Shown: positions 4,354-24,470 of the stretch, piece after piece
Numbering within the stretch: position 1 is the stretch's first letter
How the letters are laid out: every line of letters begins with the position of its first letter
The notes under the pieces: generated by a model
What the model was told of the DNA's origin: nothing
What the model saw: the letters and a program-made list of their open reading frames with translations, nothing else
Database searches by the model: none
NCBI GenBank assembly: GCA_021399395.1
Contig: JAAFKJ010000102.1
Coordinates: forward strand, 1-29,577
DNA: 29,577 bases
Direction of reading: 5' to 3'
From: Candidatus Heimdallarchaeota archaeon
GTDB taxonomy: Archaea > Asgardarchaeota > Heimdallarchaeia > Heimdallarchaeales > Heimdallarchaeaceae
Position numbers and translations under genes: made by a program

Positions 4354-5220
4354 TTATTCTTCAAGAACTGGAGCAATAGTTGCTGTTACGGCCCATTTTC
4401 CTGCAGTCAATGCCATTGTGGGAGGCATATTCCAATAGAAGACTTCTTTAATTTTTCTGACTTTTTTGATTTCTTCAGCATATACTTTTGCAAAATCTTT
4501 GTTTATGGCATCAGCCATGAAGAGATTGTATTCTTTATCAGGTTCTGTTCTTTCTTCAATCTCTGCAATCATTTTCTTTAAAGCACTCTTATAACTTAAA
4601 CCTGCGCCAAATGCTGTAAAACCATCTTCTACGGTACAATGAGCTATAGGTTTCATCTTAAGTAAAGAAACCATTACTCCTTTCATTGACCCTCGACTTA
4701 CTTTTCCTGTTTTGAAAAGAGTCTCAATATCTACAGTTGTACCTATAGTGTAAATTTTATGTTTGATAGTGTCAAGATATTCCATGATTTCCTCTGCTGA
4801 TTTTCCTTTCTTCAGGAGCTTCAAAGTGTTATAAACCATTGCACCTTGAGAGCCTACAGTTAGCTCCGTTGGATAAATATGAAGTTTTAGATTTTTCTTA
4901 ACGGTTCTAGATGCTAGCCTAACTACATTCATTTGGCTAGAAATTTTTGGAGTTATCCCCAGATAAAGTGCTTCTTTGTAACCTTCATCTATCGTTTTCT
5001 TGAGGATATTCATAGTATCTTCAGGCGTTGCTTGACTACTTGTAGGATATGGGTCTAAATCATGAAGACTGTTAACAAAATCATCAAAATTCAGTTCTGT
5101 CAATTCTCTATGATCCTTCCCATCAATAATTAAAATAGATTCAAAGAAACCGATATTTTCCTTTTCCATCATCTCTTTAGGAAGTAAACAAGAAGCATCG
5201 GTAAGTAACTTAATCTTCAT
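4354..5220 (-). CDS. degV: DegV/FakB-family fatty-acid-binding protein
   Basis: IKLLTDASCLLP start, PTSSQAT motif, ISSQMN, L.KTGKVS and LLKMKPI motifs; 288 aa is typical. Confidence 0.88.
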   Translation of the reverse strand: MKIKLLTDASCLLPKEMMEKENIGFFESILIIDGKDHRELTELNFDDFVNSLHDLDPYPTSSQATPEDTMNILKKTIDEGYKEALYLGITPKISSQMNVVRLASRTVKKNLKLHIYPTELTVGSQGAMVYNTLKLLKKGKSAEEIMEYLDTIKHKIYTIGTTVDIETLFKTGKVSRGSMKGVMVSLLKMKPIAHCTVEDGFTAFGAGLSYKSALKKMIAEIEERTEPDKEYNLFMADAINKDFAKVYAEEIKKVRKIKEVFYWNMPPTMALTAGKWAVTATIAPVLEE

Positions 5221-5318: not shown

Positions 5319-6161
5319 ATGAGAAGGAAGTTTAAGTTTGAACCATTAGTTGCAAAATATGAAGAATTAGCGGAAGAGATACATATCACTGTAAGCGATG
5401 GTACAACAGTTAGAACCTATTACACAACGGCACCAGAAAAAACGAAAAATGGATTCACACTCTTTTTTATACCTGGGTGGGCAACAATTGTTCCTTCATG
5501 GGATGAAGTATTATTAGAAGCAATGATTTATTTCGATGTAGTTTACTTTGAATCACGAGAGAAAGATTCGAGTGTATTAAACAAAAAAACAAAGAACACC
5601 CTTGACAGAGTTTCTGAAGATGTAATAGATGTCATTAACCATCTTAACTTGGACGAAAAAAAACTTATACCTCTAGCTTCTTCTTGGGGTGCAATACTTC
5701 TTGCAGATGCTCTAGCTAAGAAGAAATTTGATCCGTATTTGGTTGCGTTTGTAGGTGCAACTTCTAAAATTGCTTTACCAAAAGGTACCAAGTATATTAT
5801 CCCTTTCACCCCTCCTTTTGTATTAACTGTTATCAAACCTCTTCTTCGTTCATGGTTAATAAACAAGAAATCTGAAAGTGAGGAACACGCTAAGAGATAT
5901 CTAAGACTGTTAGAAGAAGCAAATGCTAAGAAATGGAAAAATGTAGCTAAGTGTTCCTTGGGAGAACATTGGCATTTATATGAACGGATAGAACAAAATA
6001 CAATTATTTTTGGAGCAGAACAGGATAAAATGCACAATATAGCGGAAACCAGAAAAATTGTTAAGTTAGTTAAGAAGTCGATATATATTGATATGAAAAC
6101 TAACAAGAATACTCACTCTTCAAATGTAATAGATGAATTAAGAAGACAGCTAGAAACATAG
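5319..6161 (+). CDS. Alpha/beta-fold hydrolase (putative esterase/lipase), copy 1
   Basis: FFIPGW oxyanion motif, ASSWG nucleophile elbow, GAEQD acid and KNTH His. Confidence 0.8.
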   Translation: MRRKFKFEPLVAKYEELAEEIHITVSDGTTVRTYYTTAPEKTKNGFTLFFIPGWATIVPSWDEVLLEAMIYFDVVYFESREKDSSVLNKKTKNTLDRVSEDVIDVINHLNLDEKKLIPLASSWGAILLADALAKKKFDPYLVAFVGATSKIALPKGTKYIIPFTPPFVLTVIKPLLRSWLINKKSESEEHAKRYLRLLEEANAKKWKNVAKCSLGEHWHLYERIEQNTIIFGAEQDKMHNIAETRKIVKLVKKSIYIDMKTNKNTHSSNVIDELRRQLET

Positions 6162-6166
6162 CAAAA

Positions 6167-6186
6167 GAACAAGGACTTCTTTGTTC
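6167..6186 (+). terminator. Putative hairpin between the hydrolase paralogs
   Basis: GAACAAGG-ACTT-CTTTGTTC, an 8-bp stem with one G-U pair, just after the stop. Confidence 0.35.
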
Positions 6187-6272
6187 ATTAAAAGAGAATT
6201 TAATTGGCTTAATTGTAATTACATAGTTTTGGTAAGGTGAATAATTTTTTAAACAAGTTGTAAAAACATGAC

Positions 6273-7130
6273 TTGAATGGGATGAGAACGAAGAAACTCA
6301 GATTTGAACCATTAATCGCGAAATATGAGGAGATAGCAGAAGAAGCTTTCATCCCAGTGAGTGATGGTACAATACTCAGGGTACTACGGACAAAAGCACC
6401 AGAAGAAACAAGAAATGACTTTACGCTTTTCTTAATACCAGGATGGTCTACAGCGGTTATTTCATGGGATAAAGTTCTCTCAGAAGCCATGAAGTTTTTT
6501 GACATCGTTTACTTTGAATCAAGAGAAAAACACTCAAGTACATTGAATATGAAAACAAAAAATACTCTAGATAGAATTTCTGAAGATGTTAAAGAAGTTG
6601 TTAGACATCTAGAATTGGATGAAAAATCTATGGTTATATTAGCTTCTTCATGGGGTGCGATTTTCCTAGCTGATGCACTAGCAAAGAAGAAAATTAATCC
6701 TCATTTGGTAGCATTGAGTGGTACAACAGCTAAACTCACACTCCCTAAAGGTACAAGACACATAATTCCTTTCACACCTCCCTTTATTTTTACAGCTCTT
6801 AAACCAATTCTACGAGCTTGGTTAGCAAATAGAAAATCTGAAGATGAAGAACAAGCAAGAAAAATTCTGAGAAATCTTGAAGAAGCAGATGCACGGAAAT
6901 GGAAAAAAGTTGTCAAGTATTCTATGATGGATTGTTGGGATCTATATGAACAAATAGAGCAAAATACTATTATTTTTGGTGCAGAATTGGATAAAATGCA
7001 TAATTTTGAAGAAACGAGAAGGATTGTAAGATTAGTAAAGAATTCAACATATGTGGATATGAAGACCAATAAAAATTCACATACAAAAAATGTTGTTACA
7101 GAATTGAGAAACCACCTAAAAACCATGTAA
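6273..7130 (+). CDS. Alpha/beta-fold hydrolase, copy 2 (tandem paralog)
   Basis: Collinear with copy 1 (IPGW, VYFESREK, ASSWG, IPFTPPF, DMKTNKN.H); true start may be ATG 6282. Confidence 0.8.
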   Translation: MNGMRTKKLRFEPLIAKYEEIAEEAFIPVSDGTILRVLRTKAPEETRNDFTLFLIPGWSTAVISWDKVLSEAMKFFDIVYFESREKHSSTLNMKTKNTLDRISEDVKEVVRHLELDEKSMVILASSWGAIFLADALAKKKINPHLVALSGTTAKLTLPKGTRHIIPFTPPFIFTALKPILRAWLANRKSEDEEQARKILRNLEEADARKWKKVVKYSMMDCWDLYEQIEQNTIIFGAELDKMHNFEETRRIVRLVKNSTYVDMKTNKNSHTKNVVTELRNHLKTM

Positions 7131-8338: not shown

Positions 8339-8456
8339 GATTATTTCAATAAATTATCATTTTTAGATTATTCTTAAAGTATTATATTTGTATTAAATAA
8401 TATTTAAAAACAAGCTAAGAAGCAACAGTAATAACATTAAATGAACAGTGTTTATT

Positions 8457-8867
8457 ATGTCAGCAAAATTTCCAAGTAGAGAATGGATAGAGAGATTTAT
8501 GGGGGTTCTTAATAACTCCGCAGATTACAAGGAAGCGGCTAAAACGTGGGAAGGCGACTTTCTATTTGTAATCGAACCAGATGATAAACTAGATAAACAA
8601 CACACATTTTATCTAGATCTTTGGCATGGCGATTGTAGAAGCGTAGATTATATTGAGGAAGGACAAAAAGGACCTAAAACTGAATTTGAGTATATAGGTA
8701 CCTATTCTAATTGGTTAAAAGTAATTAATGGAGACTTAGATCCTATCAAAGGAATCCTAACTAGAAAATTCAAGCTTGTTGGTGATAAAGGAAAAGTCAT
8801 GCGAGCAACCAAAGCTGCAAAAGAATTAGTTAATTCAGCACAAAAAGTTCCAACAGAATTTCTATAA
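8457..8867 (+). CDS. SCP2 (sterol carrier protein 2) domain lipid-binding protein
   Basis: KFPSREW start, GTYSNWLKVINGDLDPIKGILTRKFKLVGD C-terminal SCP2 signature; ORF track start 8448. Confidence 0.85.
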   Translation: MSAKFPSREWIERFMGVLNNSADYKEAAKTWEGDFLFVIEPDDKLDKQHTFYLDLWHGDCRSVDYIEEGQKGPKTEFEYIGTYSNWLKVINGDLDPIKGILTRKFKLVGDKGKVMRATKAAKELVNSAQKVPTEFL

Positions 8868-8890: not shown

Positions 8891-11800
8891 ATGTTTATTA
8901 TGTGGTTTTATTGTGCTCCACGAAAAATAGTTTTTGGAGAAGATTCACTAGATGAATTAAAAGAAATTAAGGGTAAAAGTGCACTTATTGTAACTGATAA
9001 AGTTCTTCTAGACTTAGGTATTCCTCAAAAAGCAATTAGTCTTTTAGAAGAAAACGAATTCAAAATAACAATATTCGATCAAGTTGACTATGAGCCATCA
9101 ATACCTATGGCAAAAGCTGGAGCAGAAATCGCTCGGAGAGAAGAAGTTGATTGGATAGTAGCAATAGGTGGTGGGTCTGTGATTGATTGTGCAAAATCCA
9201 TCTGGGTTTTCTATGAGAATCCTGACATGAGTATTGATAGTGTTTTTCCAGAAGATCCCTTACCTCTACGAGATAAGGCGCGATTGATAACAATCCCTAC
9301 AACTAGTGGGACAGGTTCAGATGCTAACTGGGCTATTGTTATTTCTGATCCGGAAACCAAACAAAAACTAAGTGTTGGTCATAGAGACCTGATACCAGAT
9401 ATCGACATTGTAGACCCTTCTCTAACTCTGAAGCTTCCTCCTCATTTAACTGCATCAACAGGGATGGATGTTTTAGCACACGCTATTGAAGCTTATACAA
9501 TAGATTGGAAGAATGACTTTGCTGATGCTATGGCAATACAAGCAATCAAGCTAGTTTTCGAATTTCTCCCTAAAGCTGTAAAGGAAGGAGAAAACATAGA
9601 ATATAGAGAAAAGATGCACAATGCAGCAACCATGGCAGGAATTGCAATTGGAAACAGCCAAATTGGTGGTGCTCATGCCTTAGCTCATTCCGCGGGAGCA
9701 GTTTTAAATCTACCACATGGAGAAATTATCGCTCTTGCGCTACCTCATATGATGAGATATTGTCTAGAAGAAGATAAGACAGTTCAACATTATTCGGAGA
9801 TAGCTCATACAATAGGTATCAAGTTTGAAACACCAAAAGAAGGAGCAGAGAAACTTATTGAAAGAATTGAAGCGTTAATTTTGGATTTAGGATTAAAAAC
9901 CACTCTTAAGGAATTTGGAATCACTCATAATCAGCTCCAAGAGAATATGGAGCTTCTACGTGACTTCGCACTTAATGATACGGGTTCCTTGATTAATCCT
10001 CGAGAATTAACTAACGAATCTATCGAGAACTTATACTATGATATGGCTGGTTTTGTTAGGGGAGGATATCGTAATGCAGTACTCAAAGTTGATTTATCAA
10101 GTCAAATACACTCTGTTGAACCCTTGGATTTGGAAGCAGCTAAGAATTTCGTTGGAGGGAGTGGATTAGGTGCTTATTATTATTTTAAATTCCTGAACAC
10201 TAAAAATGTTAGTGCTCTCTCCCCTGAAAATATCTTAATCTTTATGACTGGACCATTAACAGGTTTACCCACTTCTTGTGCAGGAAGGTTTACAGTTTGT
10301 TCACGTTCACCTTTAACAGGATTCTGGGGTGAAGCTAACTCAGGTGGAAATTTTGGACCTGAATTAAAATTTGCAGGATACGATAGCATAGTCCTTGAAG
10401 GAGCGTCAGATAAACCTGTTTATCTTCTGATTGACGATGATAAGGTAGAGATTAGAGATGCGTCACATCTGTGGGGATTAGGAACATTCGCAACTCATGA
10501 AAAGATTCTCGATGAGCTTGGAGATAAAAAATTCAAGATAGCTTGTATAGGGCAAGCTGGAGAAAATCTTGTCAAATATGCATCTATAATGAATGATGAA
10601 GGTAGAGCTGCTGGAAGAACTGGTTTGGGAGCCGTAATGGGTTCGAAGAAACTAAAAGCAATAGTGGTAAAGGGATCAAACAAAGAATTTCTTCTACCTA
10701 AAGAGTTTAAAGAAAAATCAAGAGAGGCTTATGATTCAATAAAAGAAGATTTCATGGTAGAACTTACTAAAGAACTTGGTACTGCTGGTTATCTAGATGT
10801 CGCAATAGACATGTACGGTGATTTACCAATACGTAATTGGTCTGAATCAAAATTTGAAGAAGCAGCTAATCTTTCAGGGGTTACAATGAAAGAAACAATT
10901 CTTGTAGGAAGATACGCATGTTATCGTTGTCCGATAGGTTGTGGCAGAGTCATAGAGATACCTGAAGGGAAATATAAACTTCCTCGAACTAAAGGTCCTG
11001 AATATGAGACATTAGGAGCATTTGGGACAAATCTGAAAATAGGAGATTTAGAAGCTTTATCGTTTGCGAATTACAAAGCAAATGATTATGGTATGGATAC
11101 AATTTCTTCTGGTACAACTATAGGAGTATTACTTGACCTCGTATCCAAAAACTTCATACCTCCTGAAGCATTACCAGAAGGAATAGATTTGAGTTTTGGA
11201 AATGTTGATACCTTACTTACCCTTCTAGATATGATAACTAAGCGAGAGGGAATAGGTAATTTGTTAGCAGAAGGTAGCAAGGTTTTAGCAGAAAATTATC
11301 TTTACACAGCACTAGCTCCCCAAATTGCAGGTTTAGAGGCACCTTTCCATGACCCAAGAGCGTTTAGTGGCTGGGCTATTCAGTATCTCACAAGTCCAAG
11401 AGGAGCGTGTCACAATAACGGAGATGCTTACATGATACAACAAGGAACAACCTTTCCTGAATTAGAGATTGATGATTTACCAGATAGTAGATTCGAAAAT
11501 AGTGGAATAGCTAAACAAATGGCTAGACTTCAAAGTTACAGACAATTATACAACGCAATGTCTATTTGTGTTTTCTATAATCCACCTGCACCCCTTGTAT
11601 CTGATTTATTGGGGATGGCTGTAAATCAATCTTATACACCAGAAGATCTAATTCTCTTGGGAGATAGAATTTATGCTCTCAAAAGAATCATCAATCTAAG
11701 ACTAGGGTGGAAACCTGAACTTCAAGTCTTACCTAATGTTATGCGACAAAGATTAGACGGACCAACTGAAGGAAATACACCCGATGTAGAGACACAACTA

Positions 11801-11914
11801 AGAGAATGGTATGAGTATAGAAACTATAGTCAAGAATCAGGATGTCCAAAAGGTGAAGAACTGGAAAGATTAGATCTGAAAGAAATACTTTCTTTCTGTA
11901 ACTTTGGTGATTAA
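8891..11914 (+). CDS. aor: Fusion of iron-containing alcohol dehydrogenase (aa ~1-385) and tungsten-type aldehyde:ferredoxin oxidoreductase (aa ~390-1007)
   Basis: ADH: GGGSVID, PTTSGTGS, DVLAHAIE, AHALAH, LPHG. AOR: GGY..VLKVDLS, RSPLTG, ANSGG.FG, GRAAGRTGLGAVMGSKKLKAI, CYRCPIGC, PEYET, GMDTIS, DPR, RGACH. No stop between the domains; start ATG 8891 or 8900. Confidence 0.93.
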   Translation: MFIMWFYCAPRKIVFGEDSLDELKEIKGKSALIVTDKVLLDLGIPQKAISLLEENEFKITIFDQVDYEPSIPMAKAGAEIARREEVDWIVAIGGGSVIDCAKSIWVFYENPDMSIDSVFPEDPLPLRDKARLITIPTTSGTGSDANWAIVISDPETKQKLSVGHRDLIPDIDIVDPSLTLKLPPHLTASTGMDVLAHAIEAYTIDWKNDFADAMAIQAIKLVFEFLPKAVKEGENIEYREKMHNAATMAGIAIGNSQIGGAHALAHSAGAVLNLPHGEIIALALPHMMRYCLEEDKTVQHYSEIAHTIGIKFETPKEGAEKLIERIEALILDLGLKTTLKEFGITHNQLQENMELLRDFALNDTGSLINPRELTNESIENLYYDMAGFVRGGYRNAVLKVDLSSQIHSVEPLDLEAAKNFVGGSGLGAYYYFKFLNTKNVSALSPENILIFMTGPLTGLPTSCAGRFTVCSRSPLTGFWGEANSGGNFGPELKFAGYDSIVLEGASDKPVYLLIDDDKVEIRDASHLWGLGTFATHEKILDELGDKKFKIACIGQAGENLVKYASIMNDEGRAAGRTGLGAVMGSKKLKAIVVKGSNKEFLLPKEFKEKSREAYDSIKEDFMVELTKELGTAGYLDVAIDMYGDLPIRNWSESKFEEAANLSGVTMKETILVGRYACYRCPIGCGRVIEIPEGKYKLPRTKGPEYETLGAFGTNLKIGDLEALSFANYKANDYGMDTISSGTTIGVLLDLVSKNFIPPEALPEGIDLSFGNVDTLLTLLDMITKREGIGNLLAEGSKVLAENYLYTALAPQIAGLEAPFHDPRAFSGWAIQYLTSPRGACHNNGDAYMIQQGTTFPELEIDDLPDSRFENSGIAKQMARLQSYRQLYNAMSICVFYNPPAPLVSDLLGMAVNQSYTPEDLILLGDRIYALKRIINLRLGWKPELQVLPNVMRQRLDGPTEGNTPDVETQLREWYEYRNYSQESGCPKGEELERLDLKEILSFCNFGD

Positions 11915-11945: not shown

Positions 11946-12800
11946 ATGTACATAGAGTTGATTTCAATGTCTCAAGATTCTACCATAGAGGAAGCAATGT
12001 TTAATGCTCTATCTAATCCTCTTAGGAGAAAGATTATTGAGTTCATAGATGAGATAGGGGGAGCAACTTATACTGACCTAACAGAAAATTTTGAGTTGAA
12101 ATCTGGTCCATTGTATTATCATCTACGTCAAATGAAACAATTTGTACATCAAGGGGATAGTAAGAAATATCTCCTAACTGAAGACGGTGTAAAGGCACTT
12201 AATCTCTTTAGAGGAAAAAAGGAACCTGAATATGAGGTATTTGAGGAGCCAGAAAAACCTAAAGTCTTCAGTATGTGGAAATTCAGTTTAGTTCCACTCG
12301 TAAAGTTTTTTGCTAGAAACCCTATTCACTCTCTAATAGAATTTGTAATTCTTGCTGGAGTAAGTGTATTTATTGGATGGAGGAGTAACATGTTTATTGT
12401 TGGCAATTTCGTCATATCATATGAAGTTCCCCTTTGGCTTGGGTATATCAGCCTTCTAGCTAGTTGGATTTTCATTGCTGGTTTTTCAGAAATTCTCAGC
12501 CGATTTGTCTATAAGAAGAAGAAAAATTCTCTCGAGTTAATAAATGTTATAAATCTCATCTTCCTACCTTCATTTCTATTTACAATAATCCTTGGAATAA
12601 TAGGTTGGGCTAGCGGGACAATATTAATTGTTCCATCAATAGTTTTGCTTATTCTCCATGGAGTATTCCAGATATGGAGTTTTCTGATAATCATAACCGC
12701 AATCGGAGAGGTAAAGGAGCTGACAATTGAGAGATCAGCTATAATTGCCATGGTTGTAAGTTATGCTCAAATTTTCACATTAATTTTCATTCTATTGTAA
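11946..12800 (+). CDS. Membrane-anchored ArsR-like winged-helix transcriptional regulator
   Basis: FNALSNPLRRKII...SGPLYYHLRQM...YLLTEDG wHTH, followed by about 5 transmembrane segments; start may be ATG 11967. Confidence 0.85.
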   Translation: MYIELISMSQDSTIEEAMFNALSNPLRRKIIEFIDEIGGATYTDLTENFELKSGPLYYHLRQMKQFVHQGDSKKYLLTEDGVKALNLFRGKKEPEYEVFEEPEKPKVFSMWKFSLVPLVKFFARNPIHSLIEFVILAGVSVFIGWRSNMFIVGNFVISYEVPLWLGYISLLASWIFIAGFSEILSRFVYKKKKNSLELINVINLIFLPSFLFTIILGIIGWASGTILIVPSIVLLILHGVFQIWSFLIIITAIGEVKELTIERSAIIAMVVSYAQIFTLIFILL

Positions 12801-21160: not shown

Positions 21161-23347
21161 TTAGTCCTCTTTTCTTGCAAAGAAAATCAGCGATGGTGAG
21201 CCATTAACTAAAGGTAATGAACTTAACATCCATTCAGGTAATGGTGGAGGATTGGTATCTAACATCTCTTGCCAACCTTCATCAGTTAATCTATCAACCA
21301 TTGGGTGATGGAACTCATAATAAGAGAATGTTCCACCTCGGGCTAATCGTAATTTTCCATCCTCATCTTGAACAACCACGTAGATTACGAAAGGATCACC
21401 ACTAGCAACTTCTAGAACATTTCCTGTATTAGGATCAGTATGAACATCAGCTATTACAGCCATCCTATCATCAGCTTCACTTACCCATTCTTCTGCATCA
21501 GGGTCATTGAAGCTTGCTGCTTCTTCGATTAAAGTAGCGACAGTATTGATATAGTAAATTTCATCAAGTGTAAATGGAATATTTTCGAGTTCCTTTATAC
21601 TTAGCTCGACAAGATTATCAAATATATCCGCAATAGCGACTAGTTTGCTACTGAAACTTCCAAAGAACAACCCTCTCTCATCTAATCCTGATTCCATCAA
21701 TCTAACCAAACTTGCTAGTCTTGCATAAACTTCAGGATAAGGTTCGACGTATCCTTTCATAATTTCTGGCATACTAGTCTCATAAGTGTAAGATTGTTTA
21801 GCATAAAGGATTGTATCATGTCTTAATTCAGCCCATGAAGCTGAAGCAGTCATAAGAGCCTTATCTGACCAAGCATTACTTAACATAAAACCAGGAAATC
21901 CTAAAGATGCAGGTTCTAATAGTGGAAACAGCGAGTAAAGCCACATCCAGTATAGATTTTGTGTCCAATCATATTCTGTCAGATTACCAAATTCTTCTCT
22001 TAATTTAAAGATTTGATCATCATAGTCTGGAAAGCTTACATTTTCATTAGCCATATAATAATCTGCTCTGGGACTTCCGAAAACTGAGAAAACATCCAAT
22101 CCTGTAGGCATAAGTCTTCCACCTACTTTGGTATGAACTAATTGCTGAAAGACATAAGAATCTGGGATAAATCTTTGTCCCATCAATCGGAATCCTTGAG
22201 TAACATTTTCATGATCCTCTGTTTCAAATACAAACATAGAATTAATCAAAGGTTTGCGGTATGTTTTCGCCTCTTCAATGAAATCTTCAATGTAGCTTTC
22301 AGCAGCCAAACCATCACCTTCAATACCACCTAGATCTTGCCAGATTTGATAATATTCAGCAGGTGTAAGATCATCTGCAGATCCAACATAGAATACTGTA
22401 GGTTCGTAAATTCTATCCCAATAATCCCAAACAGTATCAGAAGAGATTGAAGTGTTAAAACTGGATAGCATGAGAATAGCCATTCGTGTATGATCTATCC
22501 CCATCGCAGGATCACCAAATGGACTTTGAAGTAGGAAACCCATTCTTCCTGCATACATCATAGCTCTGAAGTAATTAGCAAGAATCTCGTTGCGAGTGTA
22601 ATGTCCGCGAACGATATATTGAGTATAGTCTTCCTCATAACCAAATATAGCAGAATATGCACGCTCAGTTGAGTTAATCAAGTCAAGTTCTGCTTGAGTA
22701 AGAGATTCAACTGCAGCAGGAATGGTATTTGTTTCATTGATCAAATAAAGCATAACTGAGAGATAGGCTACATTTCTGTTAATTGCATCGTGAACTATAG
22801 GTTCAGACACTGTACCATTTAAAGAAATTTGGGCATCTCTGAGGGTCGTTAGCATTGTTTCAAAATCATAAAAGAATCTTTCTCCTTCTAATACTCTCAA
22901 ACTAATATCATAGAGAACATGATATGCGTGCAAGCATAAATCAGTAGTTATGAATTTTGGAGTTTCTAAATCTGCATAGATATCATATATATCTTCATAT
23001 CCCTCATCAACCATGGCAAATCCATAGGTTGCAAGCATTTCTTTAATTTCGGATGAAATTTGTAAACCCTGTAAGTTGACATTTGATAGACCAGCTGCAA
23101 TCTCAGTAGGAATGATAGATGGATTGTAATCTAAATCAGCTGGTACATAAGAGCCAAATGATGTACTTACAGTATTCTTAACATCAAAAGTTGAAGCAGT
23201 TCCCTCAAGTAGAGGATCAGGATCCCAGTCACTATTATAATTTGGACCAGTAAGCTGAGGTAAGAATATTGCAAGGTTCGTTGCTATTATAACAACTATG
23301 ATGGAGGAGCTGATAATCATCAATTTCTTATTTCGTAATATCTTCAT
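21161..23347 (-). CDS. DUF3160-family membrane-anchored extracellular protein
   Basis: FITTD..LHAYH, EDYTQY..RGHYTR...L..YFRAMMY.GR, FRLMGQRFIPDS, SWAELRHDTILYAKQ, GYVEP, IADVHTDP, RLTDEGW; N-terminal TM/signal. Confidence 0.88.
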   Translation of the reverse strand: MKILRNKKLMIISSSIIVVIIATNLAIFLPQLTGPNYNSDWDPDPLLEGTASTFDVKNTVSTSFGSYVPADLDYNPSIIPTEIAAGLSNVNLQGLQISSEIKEMLATYGFAMVDEGYEDIYDIYADLETPKFITTDLCLHAYHVLYDISLRVLEGERFFYDFETMLTTLRDAQISLNGTVSEPIVHDAINRNVAYLSVMLYLINETNTIPAAVESLTQAELDLINSTERAYSAIFGYEEDYTQYIVRGHYTRNEILANYFRAMMYAGRMGFLLQSPFGDPAMGIDHTRMAILMLSSFNTSISSDTVWDYWDRIYEPTVFYVGSADDLTPAEYYQIWQDLGGIEGDGLAAESYIEDFIEEAKTYRKPLINSMFVFETEDHENVTQGFRLMGQRFIPDSYVFQQLVHTKVGGRLMPTGLDVFSVFGSPRADYYMANENVSFPDYDDQIFKLREEFGNLTEYDWTQNLYWMWLYSLFPLLEPASLGFPGFMLSNAWSDKALMTASASWAELRHDTILYAKQSYTYETSMPEIMKGYVEPYPEVYARLASLVRLMESGLDERGLFFGSFSSKLVAIADIFDNLVELSIKELENIPFTLDEIYYINTVATLIEEAASFNDPDAEEWVSEADDRMAVIADVHTDPNTGNVLEVASGDPFVIYVVVQDEDGKLRLARGGTFSYYEFHHPMVDRLTDEGWQEMLDTNPPPLPEWMLSSLPLVNGSPSLIFFARKED

Positions 23348-23428: not shown

Positions 23429-24256
23429 TTACTGTTTTACAGCAATAGTTTTTGTTTCATCTAAGTGAAACGAGTTGTCGGAAGAATTATCAAGAACAAG
23501 AGCTATGAAATCTTTAATTTCTGTGATTATCTGCTCATGAAATTTGGAGTTCATTATAACGTGACGCCCCCCTTTTACAATTACTCCCTTCTTTATTCTC
23601 GAACTCGCTTTCTTTATGTAATATGATAAAGACCTTCTACTGGATGAGGGATCTTCTGAGCCATTTATGATTAACAGCGGGGTAGCAATTTTACTTGCAT
23701 GTTGCTTGAAATTCTTAGATTGTCGCACCGCATTTACAAAAACATCCATTGGCATTTTGGAAAAATTCTCCTCTTTCCAAAGCAAATACTCATCATCAAA
23801 ATATTCTTCACTAAAGTCATCTAGGGGATTGTAGGGGACAAACCTGATTCTAATGAATCGAGAAATGAAAGTAAATATCTTCATACCTATTGAAAATATA
23901 CCGGTAGTACTGATCCCAATGAAAGCATCAGCCATGGGTTTAGTTACTTCTGAGACGTATGTAAGTGCTGCTCCGATAGAAATACCAATGAGGATCAGTT
24001 TTGAATATTTTCCGCGTTTTTCTTCTATTATTTTTTGTCCCCAAGCGAAAAATTCCTCTAAATTGATTTCTGCTAGATGTTCGAAGTCAACACCATGGTT
24101 TGGTAGCAAAGGAACATAAACATCGTACTGTTCTTCAACTAAATGCTCAGCAAGATTTTTCATATCGAGTGTAGTGCCTGTAAAACCATGAAAAATTAGA
24201 ACACATGTATCAGAGCTGTTTTTGTATTCCAAATCTTTAGCATATTTATTACTCAT
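23429..24256 (-). CDS. Carboxylesterase (Est30/YvaK-like alpha/beta hydrolase)
   Basis: HGFTG, LPNHG, GISIG nucleophile elbow, GSED acid, GGRH His; GGTGA before ATG 24256 (ORF track start 24268). Confidence 0.88.
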   Translation of the reverse strand: MSNKYAKDLEYKNSSDTCVLIFHGFTGTTLDMKNLAEHLVEEQYDVYVPLLPNHGVDFEHLAEINLEEFFAWGQKIIEEKRGKYSKLILIGISIGAALTYVSEVTKPMADAFIGISTTGIFSIGMKIFTFISRFIRIRFVPYNPLDDFSEEYFDDEYLLWKEENFSKMPMDVFVNAVRQSKNFKQHASKIATPLLIINGSEDPSSSRRSLSYYIKKASSRIKKGVIVKGGRHVIMNSKFHEQIITEIKDFIALVLDNSSDNSFHLDETKTIAVKQ

Positions 24257-24470
24257 TAATCTCACCAAACCTGGGACATGAATAGTTCAAATGCAGCTGA
24301 ATATCCTGAAATTAAGCCAATTTTTATCCAAAATGACTTTGATTTATTGCGTAACACACGTCCAAATGGCATCAAGTGTTTTTAAGATTTTAGCACATCA
24401 TTCTAATCTTGCCACAAACACTTTTAAAGAGTATATTTTAGATATGCTTTAACTCTAAGAGGAATCAAAA

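Follow-up and report, generated by a model that had tools for sequence, protein, structure and literature searches.

The described systems closest to the gene reported here are an archaeal oxidoreductase, a bacterial bifunctional enzyme and a pathway of two separate enzymes. The gene itself, at 8891..11914 (+ strand) of a 29,577-nt contig from Candidatus Heimdallarchaeota archaeon (JAAFKJ010000102.1; hereafter the window, meaning the whole stretch of DNA analysed), fuses an iron-dependent alcohol dehydrogenase (Fe-ADH or ADH) to an aldehyde:ferredoxin oxidoreductase (AOR). The AOR of Pyrococcus furiosus is a stand-alone homodimer. AdhE (3ZDR; spirosomes 6AHC and 6TQH) likewise performs two steps through a shared aldehyde and likewise contains an Fe-ADH module, but in AdhE a coenzyme A (CoA)-acylating aldehyde dehydrogenase (ALDH) lies N-terminal to the ADH and both steps use nicotinamide adenine dinucleotide (NAD(H)), whereas the window protein has a ferredoxin-linked AOR at the C-terminal side and would release a free acid. 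Finally, acetogens and thermophilic anaerobes use AOR and ADH in series, and the route from acid to alcohol by these two enzymes is described in PMC10816221. The same enzyme families are involved in this two-enzyme route, and in Clostridia, cultured Desulfosporosinus among them, the two genes frequently lie side by side; the route nevertheless relies on separate polypeptides, whereas in the window there is one archaeal chain with an SCP2 gene attached.

We consider it probable that the product of the window gene is a bifunctional enzyme, with one aldehyde intermediate common to an NAD(H)-dependent Fe-ADH and a ferredoxin-dependent AOR, and that the gene goes back to an ancestral gene pair that became fused. 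The two-enzyme route is known; the single-chain variant is new and uncharacterised, and it is not unique. No description or characterisation of an Fe-ADH::AOR fusion was found in literature searches whose scope lay outside subscription journals and supplements, in agreement with an earlier note on this DNA, made from the sequence alone, which knew of no characterised example. The matching passages of two Asgard papers mention many AOR genes and no fusion.

Architecture and authenticity of the fused gene

The fused gene is a single stop-free open reading frame (ORF), recognized as such from Pfam matches, orthologues and contigs that span the junction. The uninterrupted frame of 1007 aa given in the earlier note holds for the ORF, but the protein probably starts at nt 8900 (MWF..., the second or third Met), as judged from gene callers and the N-terminal alignment of relatives, and is then 1004 aa long. 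Four near-full-length Pfam domains bear out the proposal that a full Fe-ADH is joined to a full AOR by a few residues. The Fe-ADH module (8918..10039, + strand; residues 10-383) consists of the Fe-ADH domain (PF00465, residues 10-176, E 2.6e-44, 151.2 bits against a cut-off of 31.3, profile 1-168 of 168) and ADH_Fe_C (PF25137, residues 187-383, E 1.5e-51, 175.3 bits against a cut-off of 27, profile 1-191 of 194). The AOR module (10076..11878, + strand) consists of AFOR_N (residues 396-595, E 8.7e-81, 270.9 bits, profile 2-198 of 199) and AFOR_C (residues 611-996, E 5.4e-99, 332.4 bits, profile 4-385 of 385), near-full-length matches to PF02730 and PF01314 over the gathering score being our definition of AOR-family membership. 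The gap between the modules measures 12 residues by the Pfam borders and about 6 by alignment to stand-alone enzymes, and the linker itself (10043..10063, + strand; residues 385-391) includes G387, to which we return below.

No ALDH domain was found in the fused protein with Pfam. The best NCBIfam match, PRK13805 (AdhE), is limited to the ADH part (profile 457-862 of 872, 314.5 bits against a cut-off of 951), so the view that this is not an AdhE with a CoA-acylating ALDH stands. The second NCBIfam match to the ADH half is the regulatory ErcA model, at 269.7 bits well under its cut-off of 550; since no equivalog cut-off is reached, no specific ADH substrate can be assigned. Among solved structures the ADH half is nearest to the ADH domain of AdhE (3ZDR, E 1.2e-74) and the AOR half to P. 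furiosus AOR (1AOR, E 9.7e-122, query 7-608 against chain 8-603), and no solved chain is common to the two match lists. The alignment to P. furiosus AOR runs from end to end, and the Cys ligands, E313 and H448 are common to the two enzymes (other solved AORs are 9MQX, 9G7J and 8C0Z). Differences are the covalently preceding Fe-ADH, the replacement of the leading Asp of the pterin motifs by Asn, and a host lineage without detectable pterin synthesis genes.

All the motifs that had been named from the sequence (GGGS, VTD, the metal ligands, CYRCPIGC and RGACH) were located in the fused protein, VTD at 34-36, GGGS at 93-96, CYRCPIGC at 677-684 and RGACH at 837-841. The AOR residues were mapped by reading them off the 1AOR alignment and the ADH sites from Fe-ADH motifs, the latter presumably equivalent to the corresponding positions in FucO numbering. 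In the ADH half D36, GGGS 93-96 and the metal ligands D193, H197, H262 and H276 are present in 16/16 fused sequences, and GGGS and the metal ligands also in 43/43 stand-alone relatives, except H197 (40/43). The invariance of D36, the Asp of VTD, fits the suggested preference for NAD, a role that we take over from FucO. In the AOR half the [4Fe-4S] cysteines C677, C680, C684 and C893 and the catalytic E706 and H841, which correspond to C288, C291, C295, C494, E313 and H448 of P. furiosus AOR, are invariant in the 16 fused, 36 bacterial fused and 42 unfused sequences compared.

In seven pairs the ratio of nonsynonymous to synonymous substitution rates (dN/dS; Nei-Gojobori) ranged from 0.04 to 0.13 in the ADH half and from 0.05 to 0.16 in the AOR half, and dS was unsaturated (0.23-0.6) in two of these pairs. 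Such ratios indicate purifying selection on both halves. An AlphaFold2 model based on a 137-row alignment (mean predicted local distance difference test score, pLDDT, 93.9; predicted template modelling score, pTM, 0.80; linker pLDDT 88-96) is compatible with a defined arrangement of the domains. A complex prediction in which the two halves were entered as two chains scored 0.01 and provides no evidence either way. Judged by their residues and their substitution pattern, both halves look functional.

Misassembly, a sequencing error that deleted a stop codon, or a chimeric contig could also produce such a frame. The source is a fragmented metagenome-assembled genome (MAG; 201 contigs, 81.8% complete), and the nearest outgroups carry a stop at exactly the junction site, both of which speak for an artefact. 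However, a collection of 5.8 billion proteins contains 15 further fused clusters (996-1007 aa, 70-83% identity, with all domains; two more clusters are truncated), the few named sources of which are Heimdallarchaeaceae or 'Asgard group', so that with the window protein there are 16 fused clusters from several sources. We also searched 83 genomes of the class and checked every locus frame by frame. In the window's genus (g1) nine full-length open copies, including that of the window, and five contig-cut copies with an open junction were found, and three more fragments stop short of the junction, which places the gene in 17 of 25 genomes; the junction is open in 14 genomes with differing linker sequences, and selection acts on the linker in close pairs. 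Two cold-seep metagenome runs from a different study yielded contigs that extend over 9767-10700 and 9886-10644 and show 0 differences, a result that answers the call of the earlier note for a misassembly check. No RNA run is among the sequencing runs listed for this DNA. Another run, possibly the source of this DNA, covers the whole gene, and contigs of one further run break at 10001-10058 and are no evidence either way. The fused gene is real and no assembly artefact: the fused clusters, the open junctions in g1 and the independent contigs already refute that explanation, to which we give a negligible probability.

Origin and distribution of adh-aor fusions

In the sister genus (g2; 2/2 genomes) and in G073, a genome of another family, adh and aor lie in one frame with a single TAG between them, followed directly by GTG, or by GGAGG plus TTG, and gene callers begin the split AOR (P0020, P0021) at that GTG. 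Gly387 of the fused protein (nt 10049-10051) aligns with this TAG. The codons at the fused junction are ATG TTA GGT GAA in four members and CTA GGT GAA in a fifth, so the fused members retain TTAGGTGA, read as Leu-Gly-Glu and one base out of register. TTAGGTGA is thus the surviving old TAG together with its GGTG ribosome-binding motif, and the linker region as a whole represents what were the stop, Shine-Dalgarno sequence and start of the unfused pair. The remnant points to a small frame slip, for which we infer a compensating downstream insertion or deletion.

A FastTree phylogeny of 93 AOR domains, with SH-like supports only, places the fused copies in one clade (support 92) that adjoins g2 and P0022 (support 97). 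Both lie within a larger group of 31 Heimdall AORs, itself fully supported, to which the split form and forms in which SCP2 is joined to AOR alone also belong. One unfused gene call, P0019, is nested inside the fused clade. This 621-aa AOR call is 76% identical and has its first residue at a Met that is conserved at the C-terminus of the ADH; either the call is truncated or the gene may have been split again secondarily.

These comparisons show that the fusion is derived from separate, abutting genes. As most relatives have two abutting genes, it is a late welding of an old and widespread gene pair and not a new pathway. We propose the following course: adh-aor would be an ancient, translationally coupled pair, fused in the ancestor of one Heimdallarchaeial genus when the adh stop, a TAG that overlaps the ribosome-binding site of aor, was lost from the frame through a small slip, by which a few intergenic codons would have become the 6-residue linker. 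With split, TAG-separated and fused stages all present in living relatives, the locus offers a clean case of stop loss leading to a bifunctional enzyme. The prospect, allowed for in the earlier note, that related genomes always encode two separate genes is borne out in part, in that most relatives do have the abutting pair, but not for the g1 genomes with an open junction.

Recoding or read-through of TAG, for example as pyrrolysine, was considered on account of the TAG found at the junction in g2, G073 and a distant paralogous pair (see below), and was rejected. The TAG forms part of a Shine-Dalgarno-like TAGGTG or TAGGAG, after which comes GTG, TTG or ATG; a GGTG-type motif precedes 8 of 29 window ORFs against a background of 14%; and in the rest of the phylum the stop at the junction may be TAA, TGA or TAG. 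The use of GGTG-type ribosome-binding motifs explains the TAG at the junction without recoding.

A phylum-wide search of 400 genomes returned 150 listed rows outside the window's family (f1), one of which, G078, belongs to another family of the class, f7. About 90 of these 150 rows, by hand count, have one frame over both halves with at least one stop inside, and the fused state at E <= 1e-150 was confined to g1. All of the 20 phylum loci sampled are abutting adh->aor pairs, in which the ADH ends in ...DF, a spacer of 4-13 codons follows and the AOR starts with M..GY.GK. Stand-alone ADHs of 383 aa were found at 55-67% identity, and the longest contigs recorded for them have the same lengths as those of AORs related to the window protein, a hint that the two lie on the same contigs.

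The C-termini of the ADHs differ among lineages. Stand-alone Asgard ADHs outside the class (loci L137-L156) end in a conserved ...EGK.(V/I)DF tail, whereas those of the f1/f7 clade (compared with L017, L018 and L022) end about 8 residues earlier (...EML/TMF). The ADH C-terminal tail thus appears to have been lost before the fusion.

The architecture is not singular: besides the 15 further clusters of the genus-level clade there are at least 64 unrelated bacterial fusions, and one of reversed order. Three more fused representatives were obtained (1.84 billion scored) and confirmed with Pfam, namely P0131 (1026 aa), P0162 (1029 aa) and P0225 (977 aa), the last with the AOR preceding the ADH. A search with P0131 gave at least 64 fused proteins, 64 of the 120 proteins listed having both halves. 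Where P0131-type fusions have a named source, which is seldom, it is Oscillospiraceae, Anaerovoracaceae or Clostridiales MAGs; among unfused AORs those of Desulfosporosinus and other Clostridia are nearest. The P0131 family and the reversed P0225 share with the window protein the same four Pfam domains in one chain and are uncharacterised as well. The bacterial fusions are 33-36% identical to the window protein, and in the tree their AOR halves stand apart, in a clade of their own with full support, where they are interleaved with unfused bacterial AORs. They therefore arose independently of the g1 fusion, and there may have been several bacterial fusion events.

Among 80 bacterial loci surveyed in species-representative genomes, adh->aor is fused in 3 (all MAGs) and adjacent in 27, including the cultured Desulfosporosinus fructosivorans, D. 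lacus DSM 15449, D. sp. I2 and Clostridium sp. Cult2; the genes are adjacent in the order aor->adh in 22, AOR stands alone in 23, and in 5 the flank is too short to judge. In four of the aor->adh loci (L107, L109, L088 and L116, at about 5900-7000) the gap contains a MoaD/ThiS-like ORF of ~85-105 aa ending in GG. It is followed in L107, L109 and L088 by a ferredoxin-like ORF of the CxxCxxCxxxCP type, none being seen for L116, and in L107 this ORF continues in frame into the Fe-ADH N-terminus.

Other AOR arrangements were encountered as well. P0124 and P0187 are AORs fused at the C-terminus to another kind of domain, one to a GNAT acetyltransferase (776 aa in all) and the other to an OMP-decarboxylase/HUMPS-like barrel (832 aa). 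The distant paralogous pair mentioned above (L033 in G078:C199, also G074:C37 and G075:C55) has an Fe-ADH of 440 aa and an AOR of 790 aa that is extended at its C-terminus by ~170 aa, the AOR being in the same frame as the ADH and split from it by TAG, a Shine-Dalgarno sequence and ATG. AOR frames of 1162-1235 aa are present in G063 and G064.

Proposed reaction and the pterin cofactor

In the proposed reaction the ADH half would interconvert alcohol and aldehyde with NAD(H), and the AOR half, through its pterin and [4Fe-4S] cluster, would interconvert the aldehyde and a carboxylic acid with ferredoxin and no CoA ester. The net conversion could run from alcohol to acid or the other way. Holding the two sites together would make the net reaction faster and reduce leakage of the reactive aldehyde; channelling, and a tunnel between the domains, would be a further possibility.

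Standard potentials are about -580 mV for acid/aldehyde and about -200 mV for aldehyde/alcohol; NAD stands at -320 mV and ferredoxin at -400 to -500 mV. On these values the overall four-electron reaction would be near equilibrium, and since one step is uphill in either direction it would run only at very low free aldehyde. The need to keep the aldehyde low may explain in general why the two genes are repeatedly found next to each other or fused. As there is no flavin, NAD(H) and ferredoxin would not be directly coupled, and electron bifurcation is not expected.

A natural fusion is 'Rosetta-stone' evidence that these ADH and AOR paralogues share one aldehyde, and the long-assumed pairing of ADH and AOR becomes testable as a single protein. 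Such a protein could be a compact catalyst, free of ATP and CoA, for acid-to-alcohol conversion or the reverse, of use in syngas and acid-upgrading biotechnology.

It is possible, though in our view unlikely, that the halves pass no intermediate and each takes up aldehydes from other sources, such as the 2-keto-acid oxidoreductases of amino-acid fermentation, so that an aldehyde is oxidized to the acid, yielding reduced ferredoxin, or reduced to the alcohol at the expense of NADH, as set by the redox state of the cell. The window's genome has 6 AOR-family genes, in keeping with a general role in aldehyde disposal of this kind. Parts of the Asgard literature describe these archaea as peptide fermenters with AOR, VOR and IOR, and elsewhere discuss their AORs as aldehyde sinks and sources of reduced ferredoxin. 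Moreover, aldehydes derived from amino acids are hydrophobic and would also suit an SCP2 helper. A shared substrate pool alone, however, would gain little from tight translational coupling, and yet adh->aor abuts in all the sampled Asgard loci and in 27 bacterial ones. At least two independent fusions plus one of reversed order add to a pattern more typical of consecutive steps.

Several observations weigh against that bifunctional enzyme. The gene is missing from 8 of the 25 g1 genomes (86-92% complete), where only paralogues were found, and the fused gene is therefore dispensable. With the ADH domain of AdhE as its closest relative, the ADH half gives no firm pointer to chain length. The pterin-binding motifs claimed in the earlier note, which we take to follow the pattern D-x-x-G-L-(D/C), are partly recognizable, by G734, D736 and C893, the glycine and the D/C positions being kept, but the leading Asp (D338 and D489 in P. 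furiosus) is Asn in both (N731 and N888). The same leading Asn is found in 34/42 and 36/42 unfused Asgard AORs, respectively, and being shared with most of them it is probably a trait of the clade and not a sign of decay.

The remaining puzzle concerns the cofactor. MoaC, MoeA_N and MoaE were each found in 0/25 genomes of g1, that of the window included, in 0/2 of g2 and in 0/11 of g17, and each was present in 2/22 genomes of g14, the same two every time; other families of the class have all three at E values of 1e-17 to 1e-50. The MoaA C-domain and WtpA were found in 0/5 genomes checked, among them one assembled in a single contig (96% complete) and one 99% complete, the check within g1 covering the window's genome and G023. 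Nevertheless, the genomes of these lineages have 2-8 AOR-family matches each. Possible explanations are salvage of the cofactor, an unrecognised pathway, or AORs unlike the textbook enzyme. No paper on pterin synthesis in Asgard archaea was found among those listed by a literature search. The apparent lack of pterin synthesis genes in lineages rich in AOR, if confirmed, bears on the dependence of these archaea on partner organisms.

The same result could be taken to mean that one half of the fused protein is no longer catalytic. The AOR module might be a scaffold or a redox-sensing [4Fe-4S] domain in the service of the ADH, as the failure to find MoaC, MoeA, MoaE, the MoaA C-domain and WtpA in these lineages would allow; or it is the ADH module that might have a regulatory part, sensing NAD(H) in the manner of the ErcA-like Fe-ADH regulators, given that ErcA is the second NCBIfam match to this half, though at a score (269.7 bits) far short of 550. 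We regard either version as very improbable. None of the catalytic or cofactor residues of either half varies among the 16 fused sequences, dN/dS of both halves is as low as in ordinary enzymes, and the retention of 2-8 AOR genes per genome argues that the cofactor is obtained somehow.

SCP2 partner and neighbouring genes

Directly upstream of the fused gene, at a distance of 23 nt, lies a gene for an SCP2-family protein of 139 aa (8448..8867, + strand; Pfam PF02036, E 1.1e-8, 35.7 bits against a cut-off of 21.3). Its best solved relative is the Thermus SCP2 (1WFR/2CX7), 2CX7, 'Sterol carrier protein 2', matching at E 1.1e-14. SCP2 is directly upstream in all 20 matching loci, which have fused, split or AOR-only orthologues. 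In the fused genus these are 14 loci, 12 with the fused junction and two contig-cut fragments of the ADH half (L023 and L032); SCP2 precedes the split forms of g2 and G073 (3 loci) and, with no ADH present, the AOR in 5 of 6 g17 loci. In g14 the AOR is divergent from SCP2->ADH in 11 loci (~40% identity), and 3 further loci are contig-cut. The linkage of SCP2 with adh and aor spans three families of the class. Outside the class just 2 of the 20 loci sampled have SCP2 upstream, and an SCP2 match was found in 0/80 bacterial loci.

The conservation of SCP2 next to the pair is the main hint of a hydrophobic substrate. It suggests medium- or long-chain or aromatic alcohols, aldehydes and acids, for which the SCP2 protein is a putative carrier. 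The eukaryotic proteins SCPx (thiolase-SCP2) and MFE-2 (dehydrogenase-hydratase-SCP2) likewise tie SCP2 to oxidoreductases with hydrophobic substrates, although this is an analogy only: the eukaryotic domain is fused to CoA-dependent enzymes of beta-oxidation, whereas the SCP2 of the window is a separate small gene beside CoA-independent enzymes. No relevant literature joining SCP2 with AOR was found. The conserved partner points to a lipid-type substrate that has gone unrecognised in Heimdallarchaeia, and this link and the cofactor puzzle are the points most likely to surprise a specialist.

A more far-reaching idea, which we offer as speculation and hold to be quite unlikely in full, is that SCP2, Fe-ADH and AOR form a dedicated three-part machine of Heimdallarchaeia that interconverts alcohols, aldehydes and acids of a hydrophobic kind (fatty or isoprenoid/aromatic) without CoA. 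Through the welding of the two catalytic parts in this genus the water-insoluble, reactive aldehyde would stay in the protein, SCP2 would ferry the lipid in and out, and the tungsto- or molybdopterin, which the cell would be unable to make, would be taken from neighbours.

Downstream of the fused gene, after 31 nt, Pfam identifies a winged-helix protein (DUF7347/HTH_20; 11946..12800, + strand) with a multi-pass membrane C-terminal half. The gene is kept downstream in 9 further g1 loci only and not in split-form loci. The protein may be a membrane-tethered regulator, and its belonging to the unit is uncertain.

The window also contains a gene for a DegV-family (fatty-acid-binding) protein and two alpha/beta-hydrolase genes (4354-5220, - strand; 6273-7130, + strand; 23429-24268, - strand), a weak hint of lipid handling nearby. 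At 21161-23347 (- strand) a 728-aa DUF3160 protein is encoded, with a full-length match at E 3e-179.

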